Virus record (IMG/VR): IMGVR_UViG_2866816733_000004
Location: 40,491-104,490 of that record
Source of the DNA: a virus
Lineage: Duplodnaviria > Caudoviricetes
DNA: 64,000 bases
Strand: one strand, 5' to 3'
Shown here one piece after another: positions 8,788 to 29,926 of this stretch. The notes under the pieces were generated by a model that was not told the DNA's origin, ran no database searches, and saw nothing but the letters and a program-made list of their open reading frames with translations. The first letter of the stretch is position 1, and every line of letters starts with the position of its first letter. The translations under genes and the position numbers were made by a program.

Positions 8788-8806
8788 ATCACGGAAGGCC
8801 CGCCGC

Positions 8807-9082: not shown

Positions 9083-9531
9083 CGAAGGTCGCTGACCTGA
9101 TCGACAGGTACGGCGACGCGATCCGCTACGACCTGCGCCATGAACTCGGCGTCGACATGCTCGACTTCTTCCGCGGCTCCCTGTCCGCTGAGGCGATCCT
9201 CGACTTCCTCCAGCACCTGCCGTCTACGTCGGCGTACAGCGCCGCGCTGGCTGAGGACGAGGACCTGGCGAAGGAACTGCTGGACGAGCCCGACAGGGCG
9301 CCGAGCCCGCCGCGGCTCACCGAGTTCGGCCCCGAGGTCCAGGCCCTCGCAGAGGTCCGTGACCTGCTGGCCTCCGTCCTCGCGGTGCTGGTGAAGGCGA
9401 ACGGCGGGAAGCCGCAGAAGCCCAAGCCGTATCCCCGGCCGGTGACGGCGCTGCAGAAGTTGAAGCGGCGAATGCGGTACTCGCGGCACCTGGACGTGGT
9501 TCGTCGCGTCCTGCCGGGCCGTTCCTCCTGA
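9073..9531 (+). CDS. Tail assembly chaperone T segment, reached by programmed -1 frameshift
   Basis: -1 frame is open from GGGGAAA (9073-9079): GEITKVADLIDRYGDAIRYDLRHELGVDMLDFFRG...KPYPRP. Confidence 0.8.
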   Translation, partial: GEITKVADLIDRYGDAIRYDLRHELGVDMLDFFRGSLSAEAILDFLQHLPSTSAYSAALAEDEDLAKELLDEPDRAPSPPRLTEFGPEVQALAEVRDLLASVLAVLVKANGGKPQKPKPYPRPVTALQKLKRRMRYSRHLDVVRRVLPGRSS

Positions 9532-9597
9532 TCTTTGTGAGGCTTTCGGTCTCCTCCCTGAAGGGTGCCCTGGGTCGGGCAGGGAGGAGCGCCTGCC

Positions 9598-12500
9598 GTG
9601 GCTGTCGAAGTGGGCGGCGCGTTCATCTCCGTCCGCCCTGACCTCAAGGGCTTCCATACCAAGATCAAGACCGAGTTGCGGTCGATGGCGCCGTCGATGG
9701 TGTCGATCGGCCGTGAGTGGGGGACCGCGCTCCAGCGGGGGATCAAGGAGAAGCTCACCCCGATCGAGGTTCGCCTCGAAGCTGGCGCAACGGCCGCCCA
9801 ACTGGCCACGTTGAATCGGGCCGTCGACAAGCTCGACGGCCGGGTCATCAACATTCAGGTCAACGCTGATGTGTCCGCTGCGGCGGCGCGCCTGGTGTCA
9901 TTCGAGCAGACTCTGTCGCGACTGGACGGCCGCAAGGTCAACGTCCAGATCAACGTCGACATGGCTGGCGCGGTCAGCGAACTGCTCGCGTTGGAGCAGG
10001 TTCTGGCCAGAATCGATGGCCGCCGCGTCAGCGTGCAGGTCGACGTTCAGATCGCGGGCGCTCTCGCCCAACTCGCCGCAGTGCGAGGCGCGGTCACGAA
10101 CATCGACAACCGCCGCACGATCAACATCGATGTCGATATCGGGTCGGCGATGGCCGGCCTTGGTGCGCTGCGCGCAGCGCTGATCGGCCTCGCTGTGGTG
10201 GCATCGCCGGCCCTGGTGGGGATCGGTGCCGGTGTTGTGGGTCTAGCTGGCCCGCTTGCTGCGGCGGGCGCGGGTTTCGCGGGGTTCGGGGCGGTGGCGC
10301 TGCCGGCGATCAGCCACGTTTCCAAGGCACTGCAGCAGGAGAAGCAGGCCAGTCAGCAGTCTGCCGCCGCGTCGGGTCAGGCGGCGCAGCAGGCGTTCGC
10401 GGCTGCGTCGGCGCGGCAGCAGTTGGCGTCAGCGGTCCGCAACGCCGCGTACGCCCATCAGCAGGCCGTGGATCAGGTGCGGCAGGCCGAGCAGCAGTAT
10501 CAGCAGGCGCTTCAGGGTGAGGCGGAAGCGCAGCGGGCGGTGACGCAGGCGCGGCTCGCGGCGCGCCGCGCGATCGAGGATCTACACAACCAGGTCGCCA
10601 GCGCCCGGCTGGGGTTGGAGGAGGCGCGGCTCGGGGTCGAGCAGTCCCGGGCGGCGTGGGACCAGATGGCCGCGGCGGCGAAGGCCGCCGCCGACAAGGT
10701 CGCGTCCGCTCAGTCGGCGCTGGCAGCCGCGCAAGCCGCGCAGGCGACGGTGCTGGGGAACCCCGCTGCGACGGACGCGGCGAAGAAGCAGGCCCAAACC
10801 GGCGTCGACGCCGCCCAGCAAGCGCTGAAGAACGCCCAGGCCCAGAAGAAGGCCGCCGATTTGGCGGCGCGGCAGGCCGAGCTGAACTACCGGCAGTCGA
10901 TCCAGCGGGTGAAGGAGCAACAGCTTCAGCTGCGGCGGCTGGAGCAAGACGAGAGGTCCGCGTCCAAGGCCGGGGTTGAGGGGTCGGACCAGGTCAGGCA
11001 GGCACGGCAGCGTCTCGCGCAAGCCAACCAGCAGATCGCCAGCAGCGAACTTGCGTTGCGGCGGGCGCGGGAGAACGTCACCCGCACTGATCAGCAGTCT
11101 GCGGATCAAATCGCGTCGGCGCGGCGGGCGCTGGCGCAGGCGACGTCGCAGGCGGCGGCGTCGACGGGCGCGCTCGGGCAGCAGCTGGTGAAGCTGACGC
11201 CGCTGGAGCGCCAGCTCGCGAACGCATGGAAAGACCTGACCGCGGTGTTCGGGGCATGGTCGAAGAGCCTGCAGCCGGCTGTCATCCCGGCACTGATCAA
11301 GGGCATCGGGTTCCTCAAGGCACTGCTGCCCACCTTCACGCCGATCGTGAAGGGCGCCGCGGCGGGGATCGGGACGCTGTTCGACCGAGCGACGCAGGCG
11401 GCGAAGTCGCCATTCTGGGCACAGTTCTCGCAGTTCCTGGGGCAGTCCGCCGGTCCGGCGATCTTGGGGCTCGGGTCGCTGCTGGGGAACCTCCTCAAGA
11501 GCCTCGCCGGGCTGGCTCAGTCGTTCGCGCCGATCGGGTTCGCGTTCCTGCAAGTCCTCAACGCGATCGCGGCACGGTTCGCGGCGTTCACCACGGGGCT
11601 GGCGAACAACCCGGCCTTCCAAGCCTTCACCAAGCAGTTCATTGCGCTGGCGCCGCTGATGGCGCAGACGTTCATCAGCCTCGGCAGTCTTCTCGGTTCG
11701 CTGTTCGCAGCGCTCGCCCCGGCGCTACAGCCGATCCTCGGACTGATCAACACGCTGGCGTCGTCGCTGGCGGGTGTCCTGCGACAGGCCGGGCCAGCGA
11801 TCGCTTCGGTGTTCTCCGCGCTCGGCTCCGGACTGTCCGCAGTGATCGTTGCGCTCGCGCCGGTGGTGACGCAGCTGGTGCAGGCGCTCGCACCGCTCCT
11901 CGTCCAACTGATCAACGGGCTGAAGCCCATCCTGATCTCGCTCGTTCCCGTGCTCGGGCAGATCATTTCCGGTCTCGCCCCGGTCATCTCGGCTCTGCTG
12001 TCGGGGCTGCAGCCCGCGATCCAGTCGCTTGTGCCTGTGGTGTCGCTGCTGGTCGGCGCGATCGCGAAGATCCTGTTCGCGTTGGCGCCGGTGCTGCCTC
12101 TGGTCGGCCAGTTCATCGCACAGCTCGTCGCGGGCCTAATGCCGGTCCTGACGCCGATCGTGAACGCGATCGCGTTGATGGCGCAGCAGATCGCCGGAAC
12201 GCTCATTCAGGCGCTTCAACAGTCCGCGCCAGCCCTCCAGCAGATGCTGCTGGCGGTTGCGAGTCTGCTTCCCGAACTGCTGCCGCTGGTGCCGTTGTGG
12301 GCCGAGTGGTTCAAGGCGATCGCTCCGCTGCTGCCGGTCATCATCCAGCTGGCCGCGGTGATCGTGCAGGCACTCGTGCCCGTCCTTCGCATCGCCATCA
12401 AGATCGTCGTCTGGTACTGGACGACGATCGCGCACCTGCTGCTACCGGTGTTCCGGCTGCTCGTCACCGTGATCACGTGGGTCGCGGGGATCCTCACGCC

Positions 12501-14487
12501 GATCATCCAGGCGATCGGGTGGCTGATCCGCGGCATCGGTACCGCCGCGATGTTCGTGTGGAACATCATCAAGATCGCGTTCGCGGGGATCGTGTTCGCC
12601 GCGAAGATCCTCGCCGCCGTGATCTTCGTGGTGGTCGTCGCGCCGCTATTGATCGCTTTCAAGCTCCTGCAGATCGCCTTGATGGCGCTCTGGCAGCACG
12701 TGTTCGTGCCCGCCTGGCACGGCATCTCCTGGGCCGCGCAGCAGGCATGGAAGCTCCTGCAGCCGCTATTCGGGCTGATCCGGGCAGGAATGCGGCTCCT
12801 TGGCTCTGTCATGTCCTGGCTCTGGCGCAACATCGCCGTCCCCACCTGGAACGGCATCCGCGCCGCGATCAGCGTCGCATGGGGGGCCATCCGCGGAATC
12901 TTCAACGCCGTCGTGGGGTTCCTCCGCGTCACCCTCGGCCCGATCTTCACCTGGCTGCGCGACAAGGTCATCCGCCCGGTCTGGAACGCGGTCGGCTCTG
13001 TCATCAGGGCCGCGTGGACCGGAGCGATCCGCCCCACCTTCGACGCGGTCAAAAACGCGGTCGGGAAGGTCCGCGACGCGTTCAAGACCGCGGTCGACGG
13101 AATCGGCCGCATCTGGGACGGCCTGAAGAAGATCACCAAGGGACCCGTCCAGTTCGTTGTCAACACGGTCTACAACAAGGGCATCCGGGCGGCGTGGAAC
13201 ACCATCGCCGGCCTGGTGAAGCTCCCTGGCCTCCCGGAACTGAAGTTCGCGGCCGGCGGTGTCGTCCCGGGCGGCGCCTACGGAGTACTGCCCGGCTACG
13301 CGCCAGGCCGGGACACGATGCTCGCGGCGGTGTCGCCGGGCGAGGCATGGATCCGGCCCGACGCCACGCGTGCCCTCGGGTCGAACTTCATCTACGGCCT
13401 GAACGCCGCGGCGGCGTCCGGAGGGACTACCGCCGCAGCGCGGTTCCTGTCGCAGGCGGGCGGCCCGCAGTTCGCGTTCGGCGGCATCGTCGGGAAGATC
13501 AAGGACGCTGTCGGCGGCGCGAAGAACCTGGTCGTGAAGGGCGCCTCGGACCTGCTGTCCAAGGGCGCGTCTTTCGCCGCCCGCAAGATCCTCGACCCGA
13601 TCCTCGGGCAGCTCAACGAGGTCGCTGGCGACTCCAACTGGGTCAAGGCGATGACCCGGCTGCCGCGGCGGATGATCGACGGGTTCATCGGCTGGCTCAA
13701 GAAGGCCATCGACCCCAAGCTCGGCGGCGACGCCACCGGGGTCGTCGCGGCGGCGAAGAAGTACCTGGGTGTCGGTGACGACCGTGGCCGTGACAACGAC
13801 AACCCGTTCACCCGCCACTACGGGTGGCCGGCCGGTACGCCGTGGTGCGCGCTCTTCGCCTCGAAGGCGATCGAGGACGCGCACGCCACCAAGAAGTACT
13901 CGGGCGCACCCACCGCCGCGGTCGCCACGTTCAACGCGCAGATGCAACACGTTCCTGTCTCCGCAGGCCGCCCAGGTGACTTGGCGACCTACCGCGGGAA
14001 CGGGCACGTCAACATCATCGAGAAGAAGGCCGCTGGCGGCTACATGACCATCGGCGGCAACCAAGGGCCCAAGGTCAACCGGTACGTGCGTGGCGGGCAG
14101 ACCGCTGTGCTGCGTCCGAAGTTCGCGACCGGCGGGATCGTGCCGAGCATGGCGCGGCAGGTGTTCGGCAAGGAGTGGCTGCACGCCGACGACCCGGCCG
14201 ACCGGCGAGACCCGCTCGCCGCGATGTACAACCAGCTCGTCCGTCCGACCCTGTTCGACACCGGCGGTTGGCTCCCGCCCGGAGTCAGCACCGTCGCGAA
14301 CTTCACCGGACGTCCCGAGGCCGTACTCACCGACGGGCAACTCCGCCGCATCACCGCGGCGGAGGGCCGCGGCGACAGGCACGTGTCGGTCATGGACCAC
14401 GCAACCGTGGTCGTGCAGGACCCGGTCGACATCGACATGCTCGCGCAGCGGCAAGAGTTCGCCGCCCGCAGCGCCTCCTTCGGATGA
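9598..14487 (+). CDS. Tape measure protein with C-terminal CHAP-like peptidoglycan hydrolase
   Basis: GGGAGGAG RBS; ~1630 aa; Ala/Gln coiled coil, Trp-periodic repeats, FAAGG motifs, PWCALFAS...GHVNII...TIGGNQG. Confidence 0.92.
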   Translation: MAVEVGGAFISVRPDLKGFHTKIKTELRSMAPSMVSIGREWGTALQRGIKEKLTPIEVRLEAGATAAQLATLNRAVDKLDGRVINIQVNADVSAAAARLVSFEQTLSRLDGRKVNVQINVDMAGAVSELLALEQVLARIDGRRVSVQVDVQIAGALAQLAAVRGAVTNIDNRRTINIDVDIGSAMAGLGALRAALIGLAVVASPALVGIGAGVVGLAGPLAAAGAGFAGFGAVALPAISHVSKALQQEKQASQQSAAASGQAAQQAFAAASARQQLASAVRNAAYAHQQAVDQVRQAEQQYQQALQGEAEAQRAVTQARLAARRAIEDLHNQVASARLGLEEARLGVEQSRAAWDQMAAAAKAAADKVASAQSALAAAQAAQATVLGNPAATDAAKKQAQTGVDAAQQALKNAQAQKKAADLAARQAELNYRQSIQRVKEQQLQLRRLEQDERSASKAGVEGSDQVRQARQRLAQANQQIASSELALRRARENVTRTDQQSADQIASARRALAQATSQAAASTGALGQQLVKLTPLERQLANAWKDLTAVFGAWSKSLQPAVIPALIKGIGFLKALLPTFTPIVKGAAAGIGTLFDRATQAAKSPFWAQFSQFLGQSAGPAILGLGSLLGNLLKSLAGLAQSFAPIGFAFLQVLNAIAARFAAFTTGLANNPAFQAFTKQFIALAPLMAQTFISLGSLLGSLFAALAPALQPILGLINTLASSLAGVLRQAGPAIASVFSALGSGLSAVIVALAPVVTQLVQALAPLLVQLINGLKPILISLVPVLGQIISGLAPVISALLSGLQPAIQSLVPVVSLLVGAIAKILFALAPVLPLVGQFIAQLVAGLMPVLTPIVNAIALMAQQIAGTLIQALQQSAPALQQMLLAVASLLPELLPLVPLWAEWFKAIAPLLPVIIQLAAVIVQALVPVLRIAIKIVVWYWTTIAHLLLPVFRLLVTVITWVAGILTPIIQAIGWLIRGIGTAAMFVWNIIKIAFAGIVFAAKILAAVIFVVVVAPLLIAFKLLQIALMALWQHVFVPAWHGISWAAQQAWKLLQPLFGLIRAGMRLLGSVMSWLWRNIAVPTWNGIRAAISVAWGAIRGIFNAVVGFLRVTLGPIFTWLRDKVIRPVWNAVGSVIRAAWTGAIRPTFDAVKNAVGKVRDAFKTAVDGIGRIWDGLKKITKGPVQFVVNTVYNKGIRAAWNTIAGLVKLPGLPELKFAAGGVVPGGAYGVLPGYAPGRDTMLAAVSPGEAWIRPDATRALGSNFIYGLNAAAASGGTTAAARFLSQAGGPQFAFGGIVGKIKDAVGGAKNLVVKGASDLLSKGASFAARKILDPILGQLNEVAGDSNWVKAMTRLPRRMIDGFIGWLKKAIDPKLGGDATGVVAAAKKYLGVGDDRGRDNDNPFTRHYGWPAGTPWCALFASKAIEDAHATKKYSGAPTAAVATFNAQMQHVPVSAGRPGDLATYRGNGHVNIIEKKAAGGYMTIGGNQGPKVNRYVRGGQTAVLRPKFATGGIVPSMARQVFGKEWLHADDPADRRDPLAAMYNQLVRPTLFDTGGWLPPGVSTVANFTGRPEAVLTDGQLRRITAAEGRGDRHVSVMDHATVVVQDPVDIDMLAQRQEFAARSASFG

Positions 14488-14500
14488 GGGGAGCGGCGCT

Positions 14501-15364
14501 GTGAAGACCGCGGTGCGGCTTGTCGACGGCGCGCGGCAGCTGAACCTGCACCCCTCTCTCGATTACATCCCGCAAAAGCTCAGTGTGACCTCACCGCCGG
14601 TGCGTGAAGCCACCGAGCCCCGGACCGACGACGACGGGGAGCGCGACTCCACGACCCTGTTCGGCGGCCGCGCGGTGTCGCTTGAAGTCGTGGTCGTCGA
14701 CGAGCAGGTCGACTGCGAGGTTCTCCTCGACCAGCTCAAACAGTTCCTGCATCCCCGCAGCAGGCCGTACCTGTATGTCACCGATGACGGCTGGTCGCAG
14801 GAGCGGCGGATCCGGCTGCGCGTCGACCAGTGGGACGAACCCTACGAGGGATACAAGGCGTCACAGTCACGGCCGGTGCAACTGCAGTGGAAGGCGCCCG
14901 ACGGGATCTGGGAGGCCGTCGCCACGGTCGAGGAGACCGTGAACGCCGACCTCGCCGGCGACCCGGTCGGGTTCACCTTCCCGGTGACCTTCCCGGTGAC
15001 GGCGACGGCGACGATGTCGGCTGGCGCGTCCACGGTCGTCAACCTCGGTGGCGTCCCGTCGCACTTCAGCGCCCTGCTGTACGGCCCCTGCACAGGTCCG
15101 CGGCTGATCAACGAGACGACCGGTGAGCAGATCGCCTTCACCGAGTCGCTAGTGCTTGGCCCGGGGGAGTACGTGGAGATCGCCACGCGGGAGCGGACCG
15201 CGTGGCTGAACTCCGAAACCAGCCAGTCACGGCTGAACTTCATCGATTTCGACTCCACGTCCTGGTGGCGGATCGAGCCGGGCGACCAGCAGATCCGTTA
15301 CGCGCCGCTCGACACGGCGGGTGCAGCCGCTGCCGTCATTACCTACCGGCCCGCGTGGCTATGA
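14501..15364 (+). CDS. Distal tail protein
   Basis: Follows TMP; WKAPDG, GFTFPVTFP, YGPCTGPRL, YRPAWL. Confidence 0.78.
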   Translation: MKTAVRLVDGARQLNLHPSLDYIPQKLSVTSPPVREATEPRTDDDGERDSTTLFGGRAVSLEVVVVDEQVDCEVLLDQLKQFLHPRSRPYLYVTDDGWSQERRIRLRVDQWDEPYEGYKASQSRPVQLQWKAPDGIWEAVATVEETVNADLAGDPVGFTFPVTFPVTATATMSAGASTVVNLGGVPSHFSALLYGPCTGPRLINETTGEQIAFTESLVLGPGEYVEIATRERTAWLNSETSQSRLNFIDFDSTSWWRIEPGDQQIRYAPLDTAGAAAAVITYRPAWL

Positions 15365-15374
15365 GGAGGACGCC

Positions 15375-16454
15375 GTGACGCTGAAGCGGCCCCTGTACAT
15401 GCAGGCGGGCGGCGGCGATACACCCTTCTCCTACGACGCGGTCGACTTCCGTGCGATCCTCGCTTCGGTCTTCAACGTCGGGGGCGTCTGCAACACCAGC
15501 CCCGCCGACCTGAAGGTGACCCAGCGCAGCGCTGGCGCCAACTTCTCCGTGGACGTGGCGGCCGGGTATGCGGTCATCGCCGGAACCGACGTAGCCGGGC
15601 AGGGGTTCTACCTGGTCCAGAGCACCGCCACGGTGAACCTGGTGGTGCCGCCGCCGCCGGTGTCCGGGACGCGGGTTCACCGGGTGGTGGCGCAGGTCCG
15701 CGACAAGCTCCACAACGGGGCGTTGGCGGCGAACACCTACGACTTTGTGCTGAGCGTGCTGGAGGACACCGGGTCGGGGACGCCAGCGACGCCCGCGTCG
15801 GCGCTGAGCCTGGCGACGGTGAGCGTCGCGTCCACAGCACTCAATGTGAGCGACAGCAACATCACCGACACGCGGGTGAATGCGGTCTCCACGATAGGCA
15901 TCGGCCGGTGGGTCGGGTCTGATGCGCTTCGCCCTCCCGCTCCGGTGGACGGCGAGCTGATCTGGCGGACGGACAAGAGCTACTACGAGGTCGCGGTTTC
16001 CGGGTCGTGGCGGCCTATCGGCCTCGCCGCACCCGCCGCGCGCCTCGGCCGCGTCACCACCAACCAGTCGATCACCAACAACACGACGACGCCACTCCAA
16101 TGGAATTCGGAGTTCGAGGACACCCACGGCGGCCACGACAACTCCACCAACAACAGCCGTTACACCGCGCCGATCGACGGGCTGTACCAGGTGACGGCGA
16201 CCGTCGCGTGGGACTCCAACTCCAGCGGAATCCGGGAGATCTCGCTGCGCGTCAACGGATCCACGATCTTGGACGGTAACCGGATCGGTGCCGGTTTCAA
16301 CATCACCTTGACGCAGACCGTGAGCCACCTCGTGCGGCTCACCGCAGGCCAGTACGTCGAGGCGATCGTGTGGCAGAACACCGGCGGGTCGCTGGCCATC
16401 GACAGGACGTTCCACGCCGGCCCGCTGATGGACGTCGTCTGGATGCGCCCGTGA
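15375..16454 (+). CDS. Minor tail / receptor-binding protein with C1q-like C-terminus
   Basis: GAGGAGG RBS; NFSVDVAAG, SRYTAPIDGLYQV, VRLTAGQYVE. Confidence 0.65.
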   Translation: MTLKRPLYMQAGGGDTPFSYDAVDFRAILASVFNVGGVCNTSPADLKVTQRSAGANFSVDVAAGYAVIAGTDVAGQGFYLVQSTATVNLVVPPPPVSGTRVHRVVAQVRDKLHNGALAANTYDFVLSVLEDTGSGTPATPASALSLATVSVASTALNVSDSNITDTRVNAVSTIGIGRWVGSDALRPPAPVDGELIWRTDKSYYEVAVSGSWRPIGLAAPAARLGRVTTNQSITNNTTTPLQWNSEFEDTHGGHDNSTNNSRYTAPIDGLYQVTATVAWDSNSSGIREISLRVNGSTILDGNRIGAGFNITLTQTVSHLVRLTAGQYVEAIVWQNTGGSLAIDRTFHAGPLMDVVWMRP

Positions 16455-16473
16455 CCATGCGAAGGGGAGCCTG

Positions 16474-16821
16474 ATGTTCACCCCGGCCACCCGCGATGCC
16501 GTCATGGACGGCACGTCGATCGCCGCGCTGTGCACGCACGCGAGCCTGCACACGGCAGACCCGGGCGGGACCGGCGCGAGCGAGGTGGCGGGCGGCTCGT
16601 ACGCGCGCGTCGCGGTCACGTGGGCGGCGTCGTCCGGCGGCACGAAGACCCTCACGGCCGCCGTGACGCTGCAGATCCCGGCAGGGACGACGTTCACCCA
16701 CTTCGGCCTGTGGTCAGCCGTCAGCGGTGGGACGTTCCGAGGCGGCGAACTGCTCAGCGCGTTGCAGTCGTATCCGACCGGCGGCACCTTCGACCTGTCG
16801 ATTTCAATCCCGTCGACGTAG
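16474..16821 (+). CDS. Small tail/fibre protein
   Basis: SLHTADPGGTGASEVAGGSYARVAVTW, THFGLWSA. Confidence 0.65.
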   Translation: MFTPATRDAVMDGTSIAALCTHASLHTADPGGTGASEVAGGSYARVAVTWAASSGGTKTLTAAVTLQIPAGTTFTHFGLWSAVSGGTFRGGELLSALQSYPTGGTFDLSISIPST

Positions 16822-16936
16822 GAGCGCTCACAGTGACATTCACCGCCCAGGCGACGATGGCCGCCGCCGAGGCGTTCTGCGCAAGGGACATCAACGCCTC
16901 GCGGGACGACCTCGCCGAAGTAGGGATCAGCGCCTG

Positions 16937-17407
16937 ATGGCCAAGGCTGGATATGCCGTCGTCACCGGGGGCGCGGTTGCCCTGTCGGCGGCGACCGCCA
17001 AGAGCGTCCTGGGCGTGAAGGCGCCGTCCGGGAACGGCATCGACCTCAAGAAGTTTCGGGTCGCCTTCGACGGCGTGACCGCGACGAACGTCCCGGTGCT
17101 GGTCGAGCTGTGCGCGGCGACGTTCGCGACGAACTCGCCCGGCACCAACAGCACCAGCGTGACGCCTGTGCAGGTGTACGGCCGGGCCGTCACGGTTGGT
17201 GCGACGGCGGCCAGGACCTGGACCACGGAGCCAACGGTACTCACGGTGATCGGCGAGTTCCTGCTGTCGCCTGCCGGGGGCGTGGTCTTCTACGACTTCC
17301 CGCTCGGCGACACTCCGGACTCGGCGGTGTCCGAGGGGTTCGTGATCCGCTGCAACGCGCCCGCTGTTGTGAACGTCAGGGCCAGCCTCGAATTCGAGCG
17401 CTGCTAG
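16937..17407 (+). CDS. Hypothetical virion protein
   Basis: TGATG-coupled beta-rich ORF in tail operon. Confidence 0.6.
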   Translation: MAKAGYAVVTGGAVALSAATAKSVLGVKAPSGNGIDLKKFRVAFDGVTATNVPVLVELCAATFATNSPGTNSTSVTPVQVYGRAVTVGATAARTWTTEPTVLTVIGEFLLSPAGGVVFYDFPLGDTPDSAVSEGFVIRCNAPAVVNVRASLEFERC

Positions 17408-17841
17408 GGCCGCCACTCGTCCCGGTAGTCGCGATGGTCGGCGTACGGCAGAGTGAGCAGGCGCATGGTGGTGCACGGCCACTCTCCGATGATCTCTTCT
17501 CTAACATGGCACGTCGCGCAGTAGCGCCAGCGGAGCGGTTCTGACCCTCCCAGCACGGCACCGCCCTCCATCGGGTGCTCCGCGAAGATCCGCCGCTTGG
17601 CCTCGACGTCGGCCAGCACGTGGTCAGGGTCGTGGCGGGCGGCATGGTCGAGCACGTCCGCCTCGTTCTTGTCAGCGGTGGCGATGACGTGGCCGCTCTG
17701 CGGATCGTCGTAGCTGGCGTACAGATCGCCAAGGATGCCGTCTGTGCGCCAGGCCCCCGAGTGGGCTGCGGCCAGCGCGCGCTGGGCCAGGGCGGCATCC
17801 TCGTCCAGCCGCTCGTTCAGGAATCTCACCAGGTCGTCCAC
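17404..17841 (-). CDS. DUF6221-like protein
   Basis: DLVRFLNERLDED, RHDPDHVLADVEAKRRI, LLTLPYADHRDYRDEWRP; GGAG RBS. Confidence 0.75.
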   Translation of the reverse strand: MDDLVRFLNERLDEDAALAQRALAAAHSGAWRTDGILGDLYASYDDPQSGHVIATADKNEADVLDHAARHDPDHVLADVEAKRRIFAEHPMEGGAVLGGSEPLRWRYCATCHVREEIIGEWPCTTMRLLTLPYADHRDYRDEWRP

Positions 17842-17870
17842 GTCTCCAGCATCGCACCGACGGGAGGACC

Positions 17871-18566
17871 GTGGAGCTGAATAACGGCGCCGAAGGCGGG
17901 ACGAACACCACCACGGTCTCTGCCGCCAACAGCGGCGGCGCCAGCGGCAACCCGTTCGACTCCGTGGTCGGCACCCCGACGATCACGTTCGACAACACGC
18001 ACGCGCTCGGGAACTTGAGCTACAAGGTCGTCGCCGGGGCCAGCGCGCAGCAGATGGTGTGGTCGTCGGCCAGCCACGGCACGCAGTCCGAGACGTGGGG
18101 CCGCCTCTACCTGTACTCGTCCGGCGCGCCGTCCGCAGTGACCGGTATCGTCCGCTGGCTCGTCGGCGTCGGCCAGACCGCACGGCTCCGCTACGAGTCC
18201 ACCGGCGTCCTCACCCTGTCCGACGTGGGCAACAACCCAGAGTTCGCCACCGCCAACCCGATCCCGACTGGGCAGTGGGTGCGCCTCGAGTGGCACATCC
18301 TGTTCCAGGCCGGGACCGGAGTGTGCGACTTGCGGACCTACAACAACGCCGACAGCACGACGCCTACCGAGTCGCTGTCGTCGGCGACCCTGAACGCGGC
18401 GGCGGGCTGCGACACCGTGCAGTGGGGATCGTTCAACGCGGTCACGTGGACGGGCTGGCTCGATGGTCTGCAGGTGAACAACACCGGCTTCCCCGGGCCC
18501 ATCACCGCCCGCCCCGCCGTCACCGTCGCCAACCGCGCCGCCGTCGTGCGCGCGGCGGGGTGGTGA
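17871..18566 (+). CDS. Minor tail protein (lectin-like beta sandwich)
   Basis: GGAGG RBS; PTGQWVRLEW; Thr/Gly/Ser rich. Confidence 0.6.
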   Translation: MELNNGAEGGTNTTTVSAANSGGASGNPFDSVVGTPTITFDNTHALGNLSYKVVAGASAQQMVWSSASHGTQSETWGRLYLYSSGAPSAVTGIVRWLVGVGQTARLRYESTGVLTLSDVGNNPEFATANPIPTGQWVRLEWHILFQAGTGVCDLRTYNNADSTTPTESLSSATLNAAAGCDTVQWGSFNAVTWTGWLDGLQVNNTGFPGPITARPAVTVANRAAVVRAAGW

Positions 18567-18569
18567 CCA

Positions 18570-19973
18570 GTGGCACGACTCGGTCGCGGCCAGCCCAACC
18601 GGCCTGTCGTCACCCGTACCTCGGTCAAGGGCCCGCTCCCCGGCACCGGGACGATCCAGGTCAACTTCACGCTGACCGGCACCGGCACCAAGCACGCGTC
18701 CGGAACCGGGACCATCGCGCTCGGGCTCGCGCTCACGGGCACGGGCGTCAAGCACGCGCCCGGGGCGGGCGCCGTCGCCATCGCGTTCACCCTCACCGGC
18801 AGCGGCACGAAACAGACCGGTATCGGGTTGCCGCCGAGACCGCGGACCCGCTGGCAACTCATCCTTGGCCCCGCGTCGGGCGGCCATGAGCTCGCGTTGA
18901 CGGAGGCGACCGGCCGCCGCTACACGGCGCGGCTGACGGACGCGTCAGAGCTGGCGTTCTCTCTGGATGGACGGCACTCGCAGGCCGCGGCGGTCGAAGA
19001 GCTCGCTACCGATGTGCACGTGTTGTGGACCTCTGATGCGGGGGACAGTCGGCTGCTGGACCGGTGCCGGGTCGGTTCGACGCAGGACACCCTGGATGAC
19101 GCCAAGCACACGATGTCGGTTGGCTGCCTGGACTACAAGGCAGTGTTGAATCGGCGTCGGCTGTACTCCGACGCGACCCTCACCTACACCGCCAGCGATC
19201 AGGCCGAGATCGCTTGGGCCCTGATCAACTACACGCAGGGCCTAGCCGGTGGTGCCCTCGGCATCGCCAAAGGATGGGTTGGGACAACACCGACGGGCGT
19301 GGTCCGTGACCGGACGTACGAGGTCGGCGATTCCGTCGGCGAACGCGTCCAGGAGCTCAGCGAGGTCATCGACGGTTTCGACTGGGACGTCACGCCGGTC
19401 AGCGCGTCCGCTCTGCGGCTGGACGTGTGGTCACCGCAGCGGGGCTCTGATCGGGGCGTGGTTCTGGAGTTCGGCGGGATCGTCGCTGCGGCGACCAGGG
19501 ACACCAACCCTGCCGACTACGCCAACGCGCTCCGGTATACCGGCGCTGCCGGTGATGACGTGGCCCCGGGCCCGACGGCTCAGGAGAGACAGGCCGGCGA
19601 CATCGGCTCCGTCTTGCAGGGTCGCTGGGATGCGGTGTTCGGCGACGACGGCCTCACCACCCAGTCCGCGCTTGACGACCGCGCGGACTGGCAGCTGGCG
19701 CAGTCGCAGGTGGTCCGCCCGGTCTGGACGGTCACGCTGCGCGCCGGCGCGTGGGATGGGCCCGACCACATCTGGCTGGGTGACCCAGTCCGGTTGATTG
19801 TCAGATCCGGGCGGCTCGCCGTCGACACCACACTCCGGGTGTTCGAGGTCGAGATCGGGCTGGACGGCAACGGCGGCGAGTCAGTGCAGCTCGCGCTTGG
19901 CGGACCACGTCCAGACTACCGGAGGCGCCCGTCGCTGGTGGATCGGCGGCTGACGAACCTGGAGAGGCGGTAG
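18570..19973 (+). CDS. Minor tail / baseplate hub protein (Gp37-like)
   Basis: DGFDWDV, LGDPVRLIV, LTNLERR; position at end of tail module. Confidence 0.7.
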   Translation: MARLGRGQPNRPVVTRTSVKGPLPGTGTIQVNFTLTGTGTKHASGTGTIALGLALTGTGVKHAPGAGAVAIAFTLTGSGTKQTGIGLPPRPRTRWQLILGPASGGHELALTEATGRRYTARLTDASELAFSLDGRHSQAAAVEELATDVHVLWTSDAGDSRLLDRCRVGSTQDTLDDAKHTMSVGCLDYKAVLNRRRLYSDATLTYTASDQAEIAWALINYTQGLAGGALGIAKGWVGTTPTGVVRDRTYEVGDSVGERVQELSEVIDGFDWDVTPVSASALRLDVWSPQRGSDRGVVLEFGGIVAAATRDTNPADYANALRYTGAAGDDVAPGPTAQERQAGDIGSVLQGRWDAVFGDDGLTTQSALDDRADWQLAQSQVVRPVWTVTLRAGAWDGPDHIWLGDPVRLIVRSGRLAVDTTLRVFEVEIGLDGNGGESVQLALGGPRPDYRRRPSLVDRRLTNLERR

Positions 19974-19976
19974 GGA

Positions 19977-20267
19977 GTGACGGCTGCCTTGGCCCAGGTT
20001 CCGTGGCAGACGCTGCTGGCTAGCGGTCTGGTGGCGGGCCTGCTCGCCACGATCGTGCTGATCGTCCGGTCGATCATCCAAGGCGCGCTTGTTCCCCGCC
20101 AGCATCTGCTGGACGTGCAGGCCGAGCGCGACAAATGGGAGGCCGCATGGCGGGTACAGCAGGAGACGCTCGCCGAGATCGATGGCCGGCTGGACGCCAA
20201 CACCGAGGCGCTGAGGCTCATGCAGCAGCTGGTGGACGCGCTGGCGACGAAGGGGTCGGCGCGGTGA
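19977..20267 (+). CDS. Membrane protein, lysis region
   Basis: N-terminal TM helix, GALVPR, coiled-coil tail. Confidence 0.65.
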   Translation: MTAALAQVPWQTLLASGLVAGLLATIVLIVRSIIQGALVPRQHLLDVQAERDKWEAAWRVQQETLAEIDGRLDANTEALRLMQQLVDALATKGSAR

Positions 20268-20467
20268 GGCTGCCGTGGCGGCGACGCCGCGATGACGCCA
20301 TTCCCTCCGACGCCGACGAAGCGTTGGAGCTCAGCGAGCAGCGGCGGGAGCAGGCCGTCGAGCGACGTGCGGAGTTCGACCGGCTCGCCGAGCGGATGCG
20401 GCGTATGCGGACGACCAACCATTTGGCGGAGCGGTTCGCGCAGGCTTTGAGGGAGGGGCGTCGTTGA
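20264..20467 (+). CDS. Small lysis-region protein
   Basis: GTGA overlap; MRLPWRR...RTTNHLAERFAQAL. Confidence 0.6.
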   Translation: MRLPWRRRRDDAIPSDADEALELSEQRREQAVERRAEFDRLAERMRRMRTTNHLAERFAQALREGRR

Positions 20468-20787
20468 TCCAGTTGCTCGGCACCATCGGCCTGGTCGCGG
20501 GCGCCGTGGCGGCCACCGCGTTCGTGGGGCTGTACCACCTGTCGGCGCGCTGGTGGCGCAGCGAGGAGGGCATTCACCTGATGGCGTTCACCGGTGCGCT
20601 GGCGGTGGTGTTCGACTGGCAGTCGGTGCGGGCGCTCATCGTCGGCATGCGGCAGGTGTCGCTGGGTGTGGAGATCACGCGTGCCGCCATCTACTGCACG
20701 GTGGCGGCCCTGCTGGTGTGGCGGCTGTGGCTGCTGTACCGGCTGCAGATTCGGCCGGGGATGAAGCGTGAGAGGGGCAGGCAGTGA
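20464..20787 (+). CDS. Putative holin-like 3-TM protein
   Basis: Three hydrophobic segments; ARWWRSEEGIHLMAF. Confidence 0.6.
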   Translation: MIQLLGTIGLVAGAVAATAFVGLYHLSARWWRSEEGIHLMAFTGALAVVFDWQSVRALIVGMRQVSLGVEITRAAIYCTVAALLVWRLWLLYRLQIRPGMKRERGRQ

Positions 20788-20924
20788 GCGAGATCGAGCA
20801 CATGGGCGAGGTCGACCGGCATCCGGGCGTGCACCGGGCGACGGAGGCCGACGAGGAGCAGGTGCTGCGGGGGCTGTACGGCGAGCCCGACCAGTACGGC
20901 GTGTTCCAGGGGGTGGAGGGCTGA
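20784..20924 (+). CDS. Small acidic hypothetical protein
   Basis: 46-aa ORF coupled by GTGA and TGATG overlaps. Confidence 0.45.
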   Translation: MSEIEHMGEVDRHPGVHRATEADEEQVLRGLYGEPDQYGVFQGVEG

Positions 20925-21403
20925 TGACCCGGGGTCCTGATTTGAGGCAACGAAAGAAGCGCGCAGACAGCGGCCGGGTTTCCTGGCCGCTCTTCTTTTC
21001 CCATATTGCGCTTCCGGATGAAAACAACTGCATGGAGTGGGTGGGCCCGGCAGGTGAAGCGACCCTCGGCTTCAAGTACGGACGCCATGGAGCGCGCACC
21101 GCGCACCGGATGGCCTACGAGTACTGGCACGGCCCCATCCCCCACGGCCTGGTCATCGACCACGTGTACGCCTGGGGGTGCCGGAGCACCTTGTGCTGTG
21201 CACCTGACCATCTCGAAGCCGTCACGCAGGCCGAGAACGTCGCACGCGGCCATAAGGGTGCCCTGTTCACGCACTGCCAGAGCGGCCACGAGATGACTTC
21301 GGCGAACACCTATGTCCGGAAGGACGGACGCGGTCGACAGTGCCGTCGGTGCAAGGCCGACCGCGAACGCATCCGGCAGCGCGCCTTGAAGGAGGCGGGC
21401 TGA
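20924..21403 (+). CDS. HNH homing endonuclease
   Basis: AHRMAYE...GLVIDH...CCAPDHLEAVTQAENVARG; C-terminal THCQSGH...CRRC. Confidence 0.88.
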   Translation: MTRGPDLRQRKKRADSGRVSWPLFFSHIALPDENNCMEWVGPAGEATLGFKYGRHGARTAHRMAYEYWHGPIPHGLVIDHVYAWGCRSTLCCAPDHLEAVTQAENVARGHKGALFTHCQSGHEMTSANTYVRKDGRGRQCRRCKADRERIRQRALKEAG

Positions 21404-22173
21404 TGACCGTAAGCAGCATGCTGGCCGAGGCGCGACGATGGCTCGGTACTAATGGCCGGCCGAACGCTCTGACGATGGCGTATGCCTCTCGGCACGGTGC
21501 CGACTATCGCAGCACGGCATGGTGTGACATCGCCGTGACTGAGTGGGCCCGCCGCTCCGGCAACACCGCCGCCGTCCTGCCAGGCGGGGATCGGGCCTAC
21601 ACGGTGTGGCACGCGGAGGACTTCCAGAAGGCCGGACGCTGGCACACCGGCACCACGGCCGAGGTGAACGCGGCCAAGCCGGGCGACATCGTGTTCTTCG
21701 ACTGGGGCGCGACCAACTCGATGGACGCCATCGACCACGTGGGCGTCATCGAGAGGGTGCTCGGTGACGGGCGGGTTCAGACGATCGAGGGCAACACCTC
21801 CGACCAGTGCCTGCGGCGCGTGCGCTCGGCCGACGTCATCGCCGGGTACGGCCGCCCGGCCTACAGCAACGAGGAGGACGACATGCCGCTCAGCGACGCC
21901 GACCTGAACAAGATCCGCGACATCGTGTGGAACACCGACACCGCCCCGGCTCCGACCGGCTCGGCGACCAAGGACAACCCGACGTGGCGGCACGTCAACC
22001 TGATGCGCGACACCTACAGCGCGGTCCGCGAGGTGCAGGCGCTGGTGGCCGCGCTGGCCGGCCAGGTGCCCGACGTGGACGAGGCCGCGATCGCCCAGCA
22101 CGTCGTGAACGCGCTCCCCGAGACGCTCGCCCAGCAGGTGCTCGACGGGCTGAAGACCCGGCTGGAGAGCTGA
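21403..22173 (+). CDS. Endolysin (CHAP domain)
   Basis: AWCDIAV, PGDIVFFDW, DHVGVIE, TIEGNT. Confidence 0.88.
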   Translation: MTVSSMLAEARRWLGTNGRPNALTMAYASRHGADYRSTAWCDIAVTEWARRSGNTAAVLPGGDRAYTVWHAEDFQKAGRWHTGTTAEVNAAKPGDIVFFDWGATNSMDAIDHVGVIERVLGDGRVQTIEGNTSDQCLRRVRSADVIAGYGRPAYSNEEDDMPLSDADLNKIRDIVWNTDTAPAPTGSATKDNPTWRHVNLMRDTYSAVREVQALVAALAGQVPDVDEAAIAQHVVNALPETLAQQVLDGLKTRLES

Positions 22174-26472: not shown

Positions 26473-28137
26473 TCATCGGCGGATGTAGCCGTTCACCACC
26501 ATCGGCAGTGACGCGTCCACGCCCGCCATGTTCAGCACGCCCTCGTCCCGCGGGTCACCGATTGAGTGTCCGTTCGCTGCCATCGCAGCGATCACCACCC
26601 GAGCGTCCCCGTTGACCGCGCGCCGGTACGAGGTGAGCGCCTGCGACGGATGCTGTCGGCCCGCCCACGTCTCGTTGTCAGTGAGTACCAAGATGCCGTC
26701 GACGTGGAGCTTCTCGCGCTGCGCCCACTGGAACGGCAGAGACAGGTCAGTCCCACCACCCGACGGAGACCACCGGCCAACCTCACGCAGGTTCGTGTGT
26801 GCCGTCACCCGGGAGGAATGGACGCTGGTGTCGACGTCGATGACGTGAACGTTGCCGCCCTCGATCCGGTTGAGGATCACCGCCATCGCGTTCGCGACCT
26901 CGTAGCAGGACCCGAGCGGCACGCCACCCGAGCGCACACCGGCCCATGACATCGACCCGGACGAGTCCACGGCGATGAGCAGCCGATGGCCGGACGGCTC
27001 GATGTGGCCGAATGACAGCTCGTACGCCTCTTCCAGCGCGTCCACGATCGCGGGAACCGGCGACCAGGTCTGGAAGTCGGCGCGCGGGTTCGGCTGCGAC
27101 CGCCCGGCCTGGTAGACACGCACCGCCAGGAACAGGTCCATCGGGTGGATCCGCGCCTTGGAGAGCGCGTCGGCGTTGGTGAGCCGCGCCGCAGCGAGGC
27201 GGGTCGCGTCACTCATCGGCTTGAGCGTGCCGAGCCTGGTCATCCTGGCCAGGTTCCGGATGAGCGCGGTTATCCCGATCGTGTCGACGAGCTCATCCCA
27301 CACACCCGCGTCGGTGAGCACGGCGTCGGGCAGGAACTCCCACGGCACGCCGCGGTCCTGGACCACGTCGATCGCGTCGACCGGGTTGGTGACGGCCTGC
27401 GCAGCGAGGAACGCGTCAACGGCCGGCACCTGCGTGCGAACGTCAGCGTCGGCGACGTTCCCCGCGATCCACCCGAACAGCGCACGCCGCTCCGGAGTAT
27501 CAGCCTTCGGGTGCGCGATCCGCAGCGCGTCCCGTAGCGCGAACGCCTCACCCGAAGACGTTTTACGCTGACGCGCCTTGCACACCCGCCACGCCACCTG
27601 GTCGACTTCACCGTTCAGGAACCACGACCCGAGGGCGGTCCGCATCGCGCGGCCGATGACCGGGGCGGTACCGCCGCTGGTGGCCTTGCCGGCGAGGTTT
27701 TTCCAGTACCCGAAGTACGTTGCGAAGTGGTCGGTGGTCCGGGCGACCTGCGCAAGAGACACCTTGACGGCCTGCTTAGTGTCGGCGTCCCCGCGGGCTG
27801 CAGCCGCGGCGAGCGCGAACAGCGCGGGACGGTTCTTCGGCGCCCGCGGTGGACGCGCCGTCGAGATTTCCGTTGCCGTCTTTACGACACGGACACCGTC
27901 GGCCTGAACGGCATCGAACACGACCCCGGCATTGTCGGCAGTGAGCTGGTCCTCGCCGACGTAGTAGGTACCGCCCGTTGTGCCGAGGATCAAGAAGTCC
28001 TCGAGCTTGGTCCACAGGTCCTTGGCGAATCCGTACCCGCCGGCGTTGTTGCGGACCTGCTCGGCCTCACGGCCAGGAATCGGCTGGTTCTGCGGCGTCT
28101 GGATGGTGGACACGGACGCGAGAGGATCACGGGCCAT
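26473..28137 (-). CDS. rsr: Ro60/TROVE-domain RNA-binding protein with vWA domain
   Basis: NNAGGYGF, FLILGTTGGTYY, LRIAHPK, ALIRNLARMT, ARIHP, AVDSSGSM (MIDAS), GGTDLSLP, LTDNETWAG; GGAGG RBS. Confidence 0.93.
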   Translation of the reverse strand: MARDPLASVSTIQTPQNQPIPGREAEQVRNNAGGYGFAKDLWTKLEDFLILGTTGGTYYVGEDQLTADNAGVVFDAVQADGVRVVKTATEISTARPPRAPKNRPALFALAAAAARGDADTKQAVKVSLAQVARTTDHFATYFGYWKNLAGKATSGGTAPVIGRAMRTALGSWFLNGEVDQVAWRVCKARQRKTSSGEAFALRDALRIAHPKADTPERRALFGWIAGNVADADVRTQVPAVDAFLAAQAVTNPVDAIDVVQDRGVPWEFLPDAVLTDAGVWDELVDTIGITALIRNLARMTRLGTLKPMSDATRLAAARLTNADALSKARIHPMDLFLAVRVYQAGRSQPNPRADFQTWSPVPAIVDALEEAYELSFGHIEPSGHRLLIAVDSSGSMSWAGVRSGGVPLGSCYEVANAMAVILNRIEGGNVHVIDVDTSVHSSRVTAHTNLREVGRWSPSGGGTDLSLPFQWAQREKLHVDGILVLTDNETWAGRQHPSQALTSYRRAVNGDARVVIAAMAANGHSIGDPRDEGVLNMAGVDASLPMVVNGYIRR

Positions 28138-28150
28138 CATTGGCCTCCGA

Positions 28151-28184
28151 GGTGTTCGACCCGCCACGAAGGCGGATGTGGGGG
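28151..28184 (-). promoter_or_regulatory. Permuted Ro-binding-like hairpin in rsr leader
   Basis: Minus strand CACATCCGCC-TTCGT-GGCGGGTCGAAC directly before the GGAGG RBS. Confidence 0.55.
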
Positions 28185-28202
28185 ACTGGCGCTGGCCCGC
28201 GC

Positions 28203-28348
28203 GGGGAGGGCGGATGTGGTGGCGCCTGCCGGGTTTTTAGACCAATGCGCTACCTGGCTGCGCTACCGGCCGACCAGGTCGGCCGAGCAGGATTTGAACC
28301 TGCGACCTTTGGTTCCCGATAACCGACGGGCTTCGACCCGCCCTCCCC
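28203..28348 (-). ncRNA. yrlA: YrlA-type Y RNA with tRNA-like domain
   Basis: Terminal stem GGGGAGGGCGG-GTCGAAG / CACAT-CCGCCCTCCCC; T arm GCAGG-TTCAAAT-CCTGC, closed acceptor-like stem, D arm GCGC-AGCCAGGTA-GCGC; adjacent to Ro60. Confidence 0.85.
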
Positions 28349-28376
28349 ATGACGTCCAGCTTGGCCCGTAGGGCCG

Positions 28377-28457
28377 GGTGTCTGCACGGATGTGGGAACG
28401 ACCGCCGGAGGGCTCTATGCGAAAGATAACCGACGGTCTTCGACCCGTGCAGGCACC
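28377..28457 (-). ncRNA. Second Y RNA (short, no tRNA domain)
   Basis: Terminal stem GGTGCCTGCACGG-GTCGAAG / CACAT-CCGTGCAGACACC; shares CCGTCGGTTATC with YrlA. Confidence 0.75.
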
Positions 28458-28460
28458 GAG

Positions 28461-28510
28461 CCTGACGCGCTGATCCGAAGGTAACGCGCCGGATCACAGT
28501 TCGCATCTTG
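28461..28510 (-). ncRNA. Possible third, degenerate Y-like hairpin
   Basis: GATGCGAAC...TGATCCGG-CGCGTTACCT-TCGGATCA-GCGCGTC; loop GTTACC resembles GTTATC of the other two. Confidence 0.35.
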
Positions 28511-28876: not shown

Positions 28877-29926
28877 CTAGAACTCGATGTCGTTCATCGG
28901 GTTGTTCCTCCACTGATCTACGGCTCGGATGTAGACGAGGAGCACGGGGGAGTTGGGGTTCCAGCGACCATGCTTAGCGATCTCAGAGATAGGGACGCCT
29001 GCTGCGTAAGCGGTCGAGGCTGAGCCTGCCCGGAGCCCGTGGGAGGTGTACTTCGCGGGAAGGTTGGCGAGGACGCCACGGCGGTGGACGATATCGCAGG
29101 CGGACTTGCCTGTGAGGCGTACGGCGACTTTGCCGGCACTGTTGGGCTCGCCTCCAATTCGCCCGTGGCGGTCGACGGGGCGGAACAGAGGACCGTCCAC
29201 CAGGCCCCGCTCGGCGAGGCACTCCTTCCATCCGTTGACGGCTTCGACCGGGCACATGTCGGCGCGCTTGCTGCGGGGGATGGCGACCCTGATGCCGCTG
29301 GCTTCCTGGTCGGTCTTCGACCGCTTTACATAGACGCTGAGCCCCTCGGGGGTTTCGATGGCGTCGTCCTGGTCGAGGCCGACGAGTTCGGAGCGGCGCG
29401 CCATCATGTTGAAGCCGAGGAGTAGGAGTGCCCGATCGCGTACGCCCTGCAGGGTCCTCAGGTCGCAGGTCGCGATCATGGCACGCAGCGCGTCGGGCAT
29501 GATCGGTGTCGCCTGCTTCTCTCGGTTGCCGTCCTCGGCCCACTGCCTCCGGTAGGTCTTGAGGGCTTTGAGAGGTTTCTCGCTATCAGGTTCGTCCTGG
29601 CAGCCAGCGTCTGTGTGCTTGGAGCGGATCGTGGAGATTGCCTGAGCAATGGTGTTGGGGGCGCTCTTGCCCCTGCACATGTGGTTGACGTACTCGGTGA
29701 GTGTCTGCGCGGTGGCAGGGAGGTAGACGCGTCCTTCGTGCTCACACCACTCGCGGAAGTCCTTCCACGCCCGGTCGTATGCGATGCGGGTGTTCTCGGC
29801 GGTGGAGTTGATGAGACGCTCAGCGGTGTCGGCGCTGATGGTGAAGTCGATGTCGCTGTACGCGACGGGCGGCGGCTCGGTAGGGCGAACGACGATGGGG
29901 GAGGAGGTGACCTCTAGGTCGGACAC
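28877..29926 (-). CDS. Tyrosine recombinase (Cre-like)
   Basis: NTRIAYDRAW SAM-like domain, RDRALLLLG...RRSEL, RSKTDQ, HGLRAG, HGRW, catalytic Tyr in LVYIR. Confidence 0.9.
   Translation of the reverse strand: MSDLEVTSSPIVVRPTEPPPVAYSDIDFTISADTAERLINSTAENTRIAYDRAWKDFREWCEHEGRVYLPATAQTLTEYVNHMCRGKSAPNTIAQAISTIRSKHTDAGCQDEPDSEKPLKALKTYRRQWAEDGNREKQATPIMPDALRAMIATCDLRTLQGVRDRALLLLGFNMMARRSELVGLDQDDAIETPEGLSVYVKRSKTDQEASGIRVAIPRSKRADMCPVEAVNGWKECLAERGLVDGPLFRPVDRHGRIGGEPNSAGKVAVRLTGKSACDIVHRRGVLANLPAKYTSHGLRAGSASTAYAAGVPISEIAKHGRWNPNSPVLLVYIRAVDQWRNNPMNDIEF

Follow-up and report, generated by a model that had tools for sequence, protein, structure and literature searches.

What kind of unit is a Ro60 gene which lies on a phage-like element behind its own Y RNAs, and how could the synthesis of the protein be matched to the supply of the RNAs? 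The question is raised by a stretch of 64,000 nucleotides (nt) of viral DNA (Duplodnaviria; Caudoviricetes; positions 40,491 to 104,490 of the IMG/VR record IMGVR_UViG_2866816733_000004), called the window in what follows, in which a complete Ro60 gene, rsr, is preceded on the same strand by structured RNAs (all feature coordinates are in Table 1). A preliminary description of this DNA had proposed a modular ribonucleoprotein (RNP), in which one Ro ring would be loaded with alternative Y RNAs from a tandem array of three. Our analysis makes it quite probable that the locus is a compact, self-contained rsr operon for a Ro-Y RNA RNP, whose alternative Y RNAs use one docking helix, with likely feedback through the rsr leader. 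What stands of the earlier proposal is a Ro60 with two Y RNAs and a shared helix on a mobile phage-like island, as homology, covariation and precedent all indicate; the array of three members does not stand.

That Ro60 occurs with upstream Y RNAs in bacteria and phages has already been described: YrlA-like RNAs beside Ro were catalogued in 2014 in 254 bacteria and 22 phages, Streptosporangium roseum being among the bacteria (Chen et al. 2014, PMC4201824), and the biochemistry of one phage system has been studied since then (PMC12135203). The locus therefore adds to a known class, and finding it on a phage-like element leaves existing knowledge as it was. It is of interest for two other reasons. 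The cassette is a clean natural case in which a host RNP for RNA surveillance moves into a mobile element as a single unit of 2 kb, and there it supplies the only Ro60 of its host genome. Moreover, a hairpin in the rsr leader leads to a simple testable hypothesis for the matching of Ro60 protein to Y RNA levels, a question which is not addressed in the literature searched; if the hypothesis is true, Ro60 and the supply of its Y RNAs would for the first time be seen linked by feedback, through this leader operator.

The Ro60 gene and its product

The open reading frame (ORF) at 26473-28167 on the minus strand (564 amino acids) matches the Pfam family TROVE PF05731 above cut-off (E 1.8e-21) and, in its C-terminal part, vWA_Ro60 PF25045 (E 2.1e-39). 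The sequence of the vWA domain contains a metal ion-dependent adhesion site (MIDAS) of the DxSxS type, D-S-S-G-S. The alignment with Rsr of Deinococcus radiodurans (2NVO, residues 11-531, E 4e-70) runs from end to end, and 9NEN and 1YVP give further full-length structure matches, the solved Ro set being made up of Deinococcus, human and Xenopus proteins. Orthologues are 59-86% identical to the protein of the window. We aligned first 17 and then 58 orthologous leaders; the start of rsr is the second ATG, at 28137, which matches the M-A-R-D of the orthologues. These matches indicate that the island protein is a full Ro60 of the ordinary, already-known kind, in agreement with the preliminary description. 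In a family search of the host genome, the island copy, with a match above cut-off, was the one Ro gene found. PNPase is encoded in the same genome. The earlier remark that no rtcB is visible in the window was correct, as the sole RtcB of the genome lies on a different contig.

Two Y RNAs with a common Ro-binding helix

The longer of the two RNAs, at 28203-28348, had been noticed before and is confirmed: it folds well below its shuffles (z = -5.3), and it matches the Rfam model YrlA RF02553 over the whole model (1-114) with E 6.9e-7 and 39.1 bits, a score lower than the Rfam gathering threshold of 69 bits. It ends 66 nt upstream of the start of rsr, on the same strand. Its terminal stem is GGGGAGGGC/GCCCUCCCC, and the stem joining its 5' and 3' ends contains, near the 5' end, the motif GNCGAAN0-1G, proposed as a Ro contact by Chen et al. 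(PMC4201824). In the Ro helix, GUCGAAG (28331-28337) is on the side which pairs with CACAUCC (28212-28218). The distal part is a tRNA-like module made of a T-arm (28287-28303), a 7-bp acceptor-like stem and a D-arm (28247-28263).

The second RNA is real as well, with limits which had been drawn too narrowly. At 28377-28457, as first delimited, it already gives z = -5.3; its terminal stem continues to 28372-28462, and with these limits z = -6.5. It consists of a long terminal stem, the Ro helix GGGUCGAAG (28438-28446)/CACAUCC and a second helix, without a tRNA-like module. As had been claimed, the two RNAs have the same internal motif: the 23-nt sequence CGGGTCGAAGNCCGTCGGTTATC is common to both, with exactly two copies in the window against 0 expected, and CACATCCG closes both of them. 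The 10.2-Mb genome contains no further copy with the signature of the shared motif.

We studied the covariation of these structures in the RNAs upstream of Ro orthologues, taken from 29 genomes of the same family and from 80 named genomes. The stems show strong compensatory change in these homologous loci. For the YrlA type (22 orthologues), 21 of the 35 pairs have compensatory changes and 91% of the cells are paired; none of 500 shuffles scored as high, and pairing fell below 50% when the partner columns were slid. All six pairs of the acceptor-like stem change on both sides, three of the four pairs of the D-stem are compensatory, and the T-arm is 96% paired. For the short type (10 orthologues), the corresponding figures are 13 of 26 pairs and 92% of cells, again with 0/500 shuffles as high and with the same outcome of the sliding control; its terminal helix of 15 pairs has 8 compensatory ones, around an invariant core as in the YrlA type. 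The core CGGGU/AUCCG and the CGAA which follows it do not vary in either type of RNA, so that the invariant helix of the Y RNAs reads CGGGUCGAA / CAYAUCCG. On this comparative evidence, both RNAs are conserved, covarying Y RNAs with one common Ro-binding helix and with different other modules. There is indeed a tandem array of distinct Y RNAs, and it has two members.

A scan of the whole window with Rfam at the gathering threshold returned nothing, and with ARAGORN neither the window nor the 40 kb of contig upstream of it gave a tRNA or a tmRNA.

The array is longer in other genera. In many loci of Nonomuraea, Streptosporangium and Sphaerisporangium, four tandem Y RNAs lie between -620 and -50 relative to rsr, in a fixed order, a short RNA being followed by three which have tRNA-like modules. 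From unit to unit the D-arm is different (GUAGCUCAG..GCAGAGC in one, for instance, and GUCGUCUAGCGGCCCAGGAC in another), which gives the impression that different tRNAs are mimicked. The form found in the Actinomadura cassette corresponds to the first and the last Y RNA of this four-RNA array. In a sub-group of loci, one can notice T-arm repeats about 76 nt apart directly upstream of the Y RNA array, which are probably real tRNA genes. Finally, Ro loci found across the class (probably in Streptomyces and others) have upstream RNAs with another terminal helix, CCCGGUGCG ... GGUUACUUC ... GAUCUCGGG, which takes the place of GGGUCGAA/CAYAUCC; in those loci no leader mimic was seen.

A promoter in place of the third RNA

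A weaker third RNA had been placed at 28461-28510. We rejected this candidate: the segment folds no better than shuffled sequences (z = -1.4), contains no Ro/GNCGAA motif and is homologous to promoter regions. The promoter of the operon has its conserved -10 and start region at this place, and the homology of the DNA to the nearest chromosomal loci starts within the segment, at 28506. Upstream of the first Y RNA, 42 of 77 loci have a TAnnnT hexamer followed 4-9 nt further on by a CAGYKC-like box. A scan with the E. coli-type promoter consensus gave nothing, as expected for an actinomycete host. Many rsr promoters of the family also contain in their -35 region, about 15-35 nt upstream of the -10 hexamer, a conserved palindrome, TGTGACGCGTCACG, which is a candidate operator; the copy of the window (28484-28500) is degenerate, the version of the window and of Actinomadura being TGTGATCCGGCGCG.

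A permuted copy of the Ro helix in the rsr leader

Between the YrlA-type RNA and the Shine-Dalgarno sequence lies an element which was absent from the earlier list of features. It is a hairpin whose arms are the two strands of the Ro helix of the Y RNAs in swapped order, that is, a circularly permuted copy, and its loop sits where the Y RNAs have their free ends. The last base of the hairpin is 5 nt, and its last paired base 8 nt, before GGAGG, which itself stands 6 nt before the start codon.

Of the 29 same-family loci, 17 have this hairpin, and there its end is 13-21 nt upstream of the start codon; of the 80 related named loci, at least 58 have it. In the alignment of 58 leaders, both arms are invariant while loop (3-10 nt) and flanks are free to vary, and the distance from the hairpin to GGAG and to the start codon is constrained. 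When 401 genomes were scanned with the pattern, 27 matches came up, and the reversed control gave about 24; all 14 matches able to form the hairpin lie directly 5' of rsr, and the other 13, which cannot form it, fit the chance background. A second Ro locus of Nonomuraea mangrovi, a paralogue, is made of promoter, hairpin and gene with no upstream Y RNAs, so that the hairpin does not arise as a by-product of the array (a complete locus with four Y RNAs lies elsewhere in this genome). In a second actinobacterial family, whose Ro is 40% identical, the same layout is built from the family's own helix, GGGCCGR / CRYGCCC: it is found at three of the four loci of one genus, for instance as CGCAUGCCCGG-AUA-CCGGGCCGAGG just before AAGGGG. 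An alternative fold, in which the leader loop of the window pairs with the Shine-Dalgarno sequence, was set aside because the loops differ among orthologues.

In autogenous control by mimicry, known from ribosomal protein operons and from the thrS operator, a structure of the mRNA leader by the ribosome binding site copies the primary RNA ligand of the protein. The leader hairpin of the window resembles such operators in that it copies the Ro-binding site and abuts the ribosome binding site; unlike in these operators, both the binding of Ro60 and its effect are putative here. A full-text literature search, in whose scope the main review of bacterial Ro60 did not fall, returned no report of a Ro site in an rsr leader or of Ro60 autoregulation.

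The case for a leader mimic rests on conservation, on position and on co-variation with the Y RNA helix across lineages, and on these grounds Ro60 probably binds the leader hairpin. That the effect of this binding would be repression is a more tentative proposal, to which we give a little less than an even chance. With the same reserve, we propose that Ro60 may regulate its own synthesis through the circularly permuted copy of its helix by the ribosome binding site; this operator would be conserved in most cassettes of the Streptosporangiaceae type, would have arisen or been kept with a lineage-specific sequence in the second family, and would travel with the 2-kb mobile cassette among chromosomes, plasmids and the present island.

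The hairpin could also have been an element of processing or stability (a boundary for the RNases by which the Y RNAs are released, or a structure which stabilises the rsr mRNA at its 5' end) or a conserved relic of Y RNA array junctions, and not a Ro operator. It does lie where the last Y RNA meets the mRNA, in a precursor which needs processing (PMC4201824), the structure of the leader has no support from covariation, and many Ro loci work without the hairpin. However, a relic would decay, and the invariance of the arms across 58 distinct leaders with variable loops and flanks is not what decay would leave. The persistence of the hairpin without adjacent Y RNAs, the way in which it follows the lineage's own Ro helix in the second family, and its constrained distance to the Shine-Dalgarno sequence and to the start codon all speak against this explanation; a stability element, for its part, would have no need for the bulged-C/GAA geometry of a Ro site. 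We consider it unlikely.

A proposed mechanism for the operon

Taken as an operon with leader feedback, the locus could work in the following way. One promoter would give a precursor with the short Y RNA, the YrlA-type Y RNA, the leader hairpin and the Ro60 mRNA. By analogy with published systems, the Y RNAs would be excised from this precursor and would bind the outer face of the Ro ring by their common helix, while their differing distal modules may couple Ro to different partners or substrates, the partner known elsewhere being the host PNPase. A Ro60 without Y RNA occupant would bind the leader hairpin and hinder the binding of ribosomes. The synthesis of Ro would in this way be matched to the supply of Y RNA, much as that of ribosomal proteins is matched by means of rRNA mimics. 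From the point of view of the island, the cassette would most simply be a host-derived cargo, which may give the lysogen an RNA quality-control or stress RNP.

Several points weigh against this picture. No partner of the distal modules of the Y RNAs can be read from the sequence, and the island may be an active phage, a defective prophage or a hybrid with a conjugative element. The YrlA score is below the gathering threshold, as is that of an RNA of the Gordonia phage Cashline (42 bits), on account of which actinobacterial members seem to be under-represented in the Rfam model. The covariation of the leader stem is uninformative, with one compensatory pair and shuffles which do as well; this says nothing either way, since the stem is almost invariant. 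The folding energy of the hairpin is no better than that of shuffles (z about -1). About a quarter of the related loci (Herbidospora, for example) are without the hairpin, and so are most other actinobacterial Ro loci. Finally we must note that the geometry of the Ro site, its survival without Y RNAs and its lineage-specific versions argue for the binding of Ro, and not for a direction of the effect.

The cassette as one mobile unit

From the promoter to the stop codon (28506 to 26480), the cassette forms a single blastn block with 83% nt identity to the chromosome of Actinomadura sp. K4S16. In three further Actinomadura genomes the block has the same limits, and the flanks are unrelated large genes. 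Because the limits of the homology recur in this way with unrelated flanks, the promoter, the Y RNAs, the leader and rsr are seen to behave, on the evidence of these alignments, as one unit of 2.03 kb. The nearest Ro proteins are chromosomal (86% in Actinomadura sp. K4S16, 82% in A. verrucosospora), and similar cassettes are found on two large actinomycete plasmids. We infer that the genome of the window and Actinomadura sp. K4S16 share one GTDB genus. In that genus Ro is patchy: it occurs in none of the 12 genomes of one sample and in 6 of the 41 genomes of another.

The cassette could then be a passive passenger, recently recombined into an accessory region of the island, with no role for the element and with an ordinary host stress function, if any. 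Its presence in several unrelated contexts among Actinomadura genomes and on large plasmids fits this explanation, and so do the chromosomal-type promoter which it has retained and the other cargo beside it, a Methyltransf_19 gene and an HTH-DUF5753 regulator (HTH, helix-turn-helix). On the other side, temperate Gordonia phages have an independently derived Ro with two Y RNAs at the same genome position, by the integrase, and this recurrence suggests recurrent selection in phages. The explanation moreover overlaps the one we prefer, which already treats the cassette as cargo. A wholly passive passenger thus seems to us possible and rather doubtful.

The preliminary description had gone further in the opposite direction: Ro60 and its tRNA-like Y RNA would serve as a decoy for tRNA-cleaving defence nucleases, or would divert host RNA decay in favour of the phage. 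Three observations can be cited for such a counter-defence. The YrlA type does have a tRNA-like module with T-arm, D-arm and 7-bp acceptor-like stem; in phage phiLo, Ro60 and its Y RNAs bind and dampen the host PNPase, which was proposed as counter-defence (PMC12135203); and a Ro gene is kept in 357 phage records, so that the earlier statement that a few phages carry Ro was an understatement. All the Ro homologues of these 357 records are less than 40% identical to the Ro60 of the window. Against a counter-defence, the whole cassette occurs in chromosomal contexts of relatives, at 83% nt identity, and has nothing specific to the element; since related species have almost the same tRNA-like module at their ordinary chromosomal loci, it is not a phage-specific adaptation. 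Compared with the host's own tRNAs, this module gives generic matches of the T-arm and D-arm only. Ro60 has no PADLOC match, and neither Pfam nor PADLOC identified a tRNA nuclease or a defence system nearby. The claim is left without support, and we regard such a function as improbable.

The more specific candidate of a tRNA-Pro mimic was rejected, as the host tRNAs give generic arm matches only; the lone match to phage DNA was one of 43 nt to a tRNA-Pro. The several RNase toxins which had been predicted on the element were not recovered: the ORFs at 30238-31104, 31165-32166 and 32205-32780, checked for RNase toxins and HEPN proteins, gave no match to a Pfam or PADLOC family.

Comparison with known systems

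The closest parallel in layout is the rsr locus of Mycobacterium smegmatis, in which YrlA and YrlB are encoded upstream of rsr and are cut from one precursor (PMC4201824). In both cases an actinobacterial Ro60 gene follows two Y RNAs of the same strand, both with GNCGAAN0-1G, the tRNA-like module of the YrlA includes a 7-bp acceptor-like stem, and there is no linkage to rtcB/RtcR. By the description of that locus in PMC4201824, the locus of the window differs in lying on a phage-like island and in having a first RNA without any T-arm; it also has the permuted leader hairpin, an element of which PMC4201824 makes no mention.

The Ro60 of the Thermus phage phiLo binds two upstream molecules that resemble Y RNAs (Yrl1 and Yrl2) and the host PNPase (NAR 2025, PMC12135203). 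Like the locus of the window, it is a phage-borne Ro60 with two Y RNA-like genes directly upstream, in which one Ro binds alternative RNAs, and its link to the host PNPase was shown in vitro (PMC12135203). Unlike phiLo, a lytic thermophilic phage of a distant lineage, the window has a near copy of the chromosomal cassettes of the host genus, and it has the leader mimic, none being reported for phiLo (PMC12135203).

Among phages the best match is gp37 of the Gordonia phage Cashline, annotated as "Ro-like RNA binding protein" (MW534378), with 38% protein identity. Cashline is a temperate actinophage with its Ro in a central accessory region adjoining a tyrosine integrase, as here. In the unannotated 645-nt gap upstream of its Ro we found two tandem YrlA-like RNAs (Rfam YrlA E 2.6e-7 and 0.38), at 4689-4964 of the extracted locus, between the integrase gp38 and the Ro gp37. 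The differences are that the helix of Cashline is of the GGGCCGGAG type, that both its RNAs are tRNA-like, that no leader mimic was seen in it, and that its integrase is divergent, whereas the recombinase of the window is co-directional. Just upstream of the Cashline RNAs, at 4491-4505, one can notice a stretch resembling the 3' end of tmRNA, a probable attP core.

Chen et al. are said to have found in 2013 that the Y RNA of D. radiodurans tethers Ro to PNPase. The Rsr of this Rsr-Yrn1-PNPase machine (RYPER) is, as 2NVO, the solved Ro structure closest to the protein of the window. As PMC4201824 relates in citing that work, the gene of the Y RNA lies upstream of rsr, and the RNA connects Ro to PNPase. 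Unlike the Y RNAs of the window, it is of a separate lineage and its T and D arms are arranged differently (PMC4201824), and a tethering of PNPase by the cassette of the window is only putative.

The carrier island

The cassette lies between cargo genes (HTH-DUF5753, Methyltransf_19) and the recombinase, downstream of the head, tail and endolysin module. What the contig has in common with 12 congeners is only the last 0.7 kb of the window (63287-64000), at 81-92% nt identity, which puts the right junction near 63287; the first 20 kb of the contig are not shared with them. For these two reasons the genome comparison indicates that the island is strain-specific, measures at least 104 kb (contig 1-103776) and runs off the contig on the left. 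Its content is mixed, with phage structural genes and non-phage genes. A search for att repeats between the recombinase side and the upstream contig gave no repeat longer than 13 nt, the ends of the contig do not overlap (it is not circular), and neither the locus nor the left 25 kb matched any phage genome by megablast.

Table 1. Features of the rsr cassette and of its carrier island (positions in the window; SAM, S-adenosylmethionine)
Feature	Position	Strand	Description and evidence
Whole rsr cassette	26473..28506	-	promoter, two Y RNAs, leader hairpin, Ro60 gene; blastn block
Ro60/Rsr gene	26473..28137	-	554 amino acids, TROVE ring and vWA domain with MIDAS D-S-S-G-S; Pfam and full-length PDB matches
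Shine-Dalgarno GGAGG	28144..28148	-	GGAG aligned in 58 leaders
Leader hairpin, 27 nt	28154..28180	-	CACAUCCGCC 28171-28180, loop UUCGU 28166-28170, GGCGGGUCGAAC 28154-28165
YrlA-type Y RNA, 146 nt	28203..28348	-	Rfam YrlA E 6.9e-7, fold z -5.3, covariation
Short Y RNA, YrlB-like by size and position	28372..28462	-	fold z -6.5, covariation
Promoter region	28466..28506	-	-10 TACCTT 28478-28483, then conserved CAGCGCG start region; aligned with orthologous promoters
100-amino-acid ORF after recombinase	28526-28828		no family
Tyrosine recombinase, upstream	28877..29926	-	Pfam Phage_integrase 1.1e-7; PHROG integrase 1.8e-16; outside conserved cassette
Convergent pair adjoining cassette	24722-26397	+ and -	HTH_31-DUF5753 regulator (+), Methyltransf_19 SAM methyltransferase (-)
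Siphovirus-type structural and lysis module	1831..22173	+	protease, major head protein, tape measure, tail proteins, endolysin; PHROG
GntR/UTRA regulator	47040-47819		non-phage island gene
Kinase-like gene	55561-56439		non-phage island gene
Ligase-like gene	57847-58911		non-phage island gene

The recombinase, the 100-amino-acid ORF, the methyltransferase and the HTH regulator are not conserved beside Ro in any of the related loci. In Actinomadura roseirufa a methyltransferase with 36% identity lies some 1.9 kb upstream of the Ro cassette, probably by coincidence.

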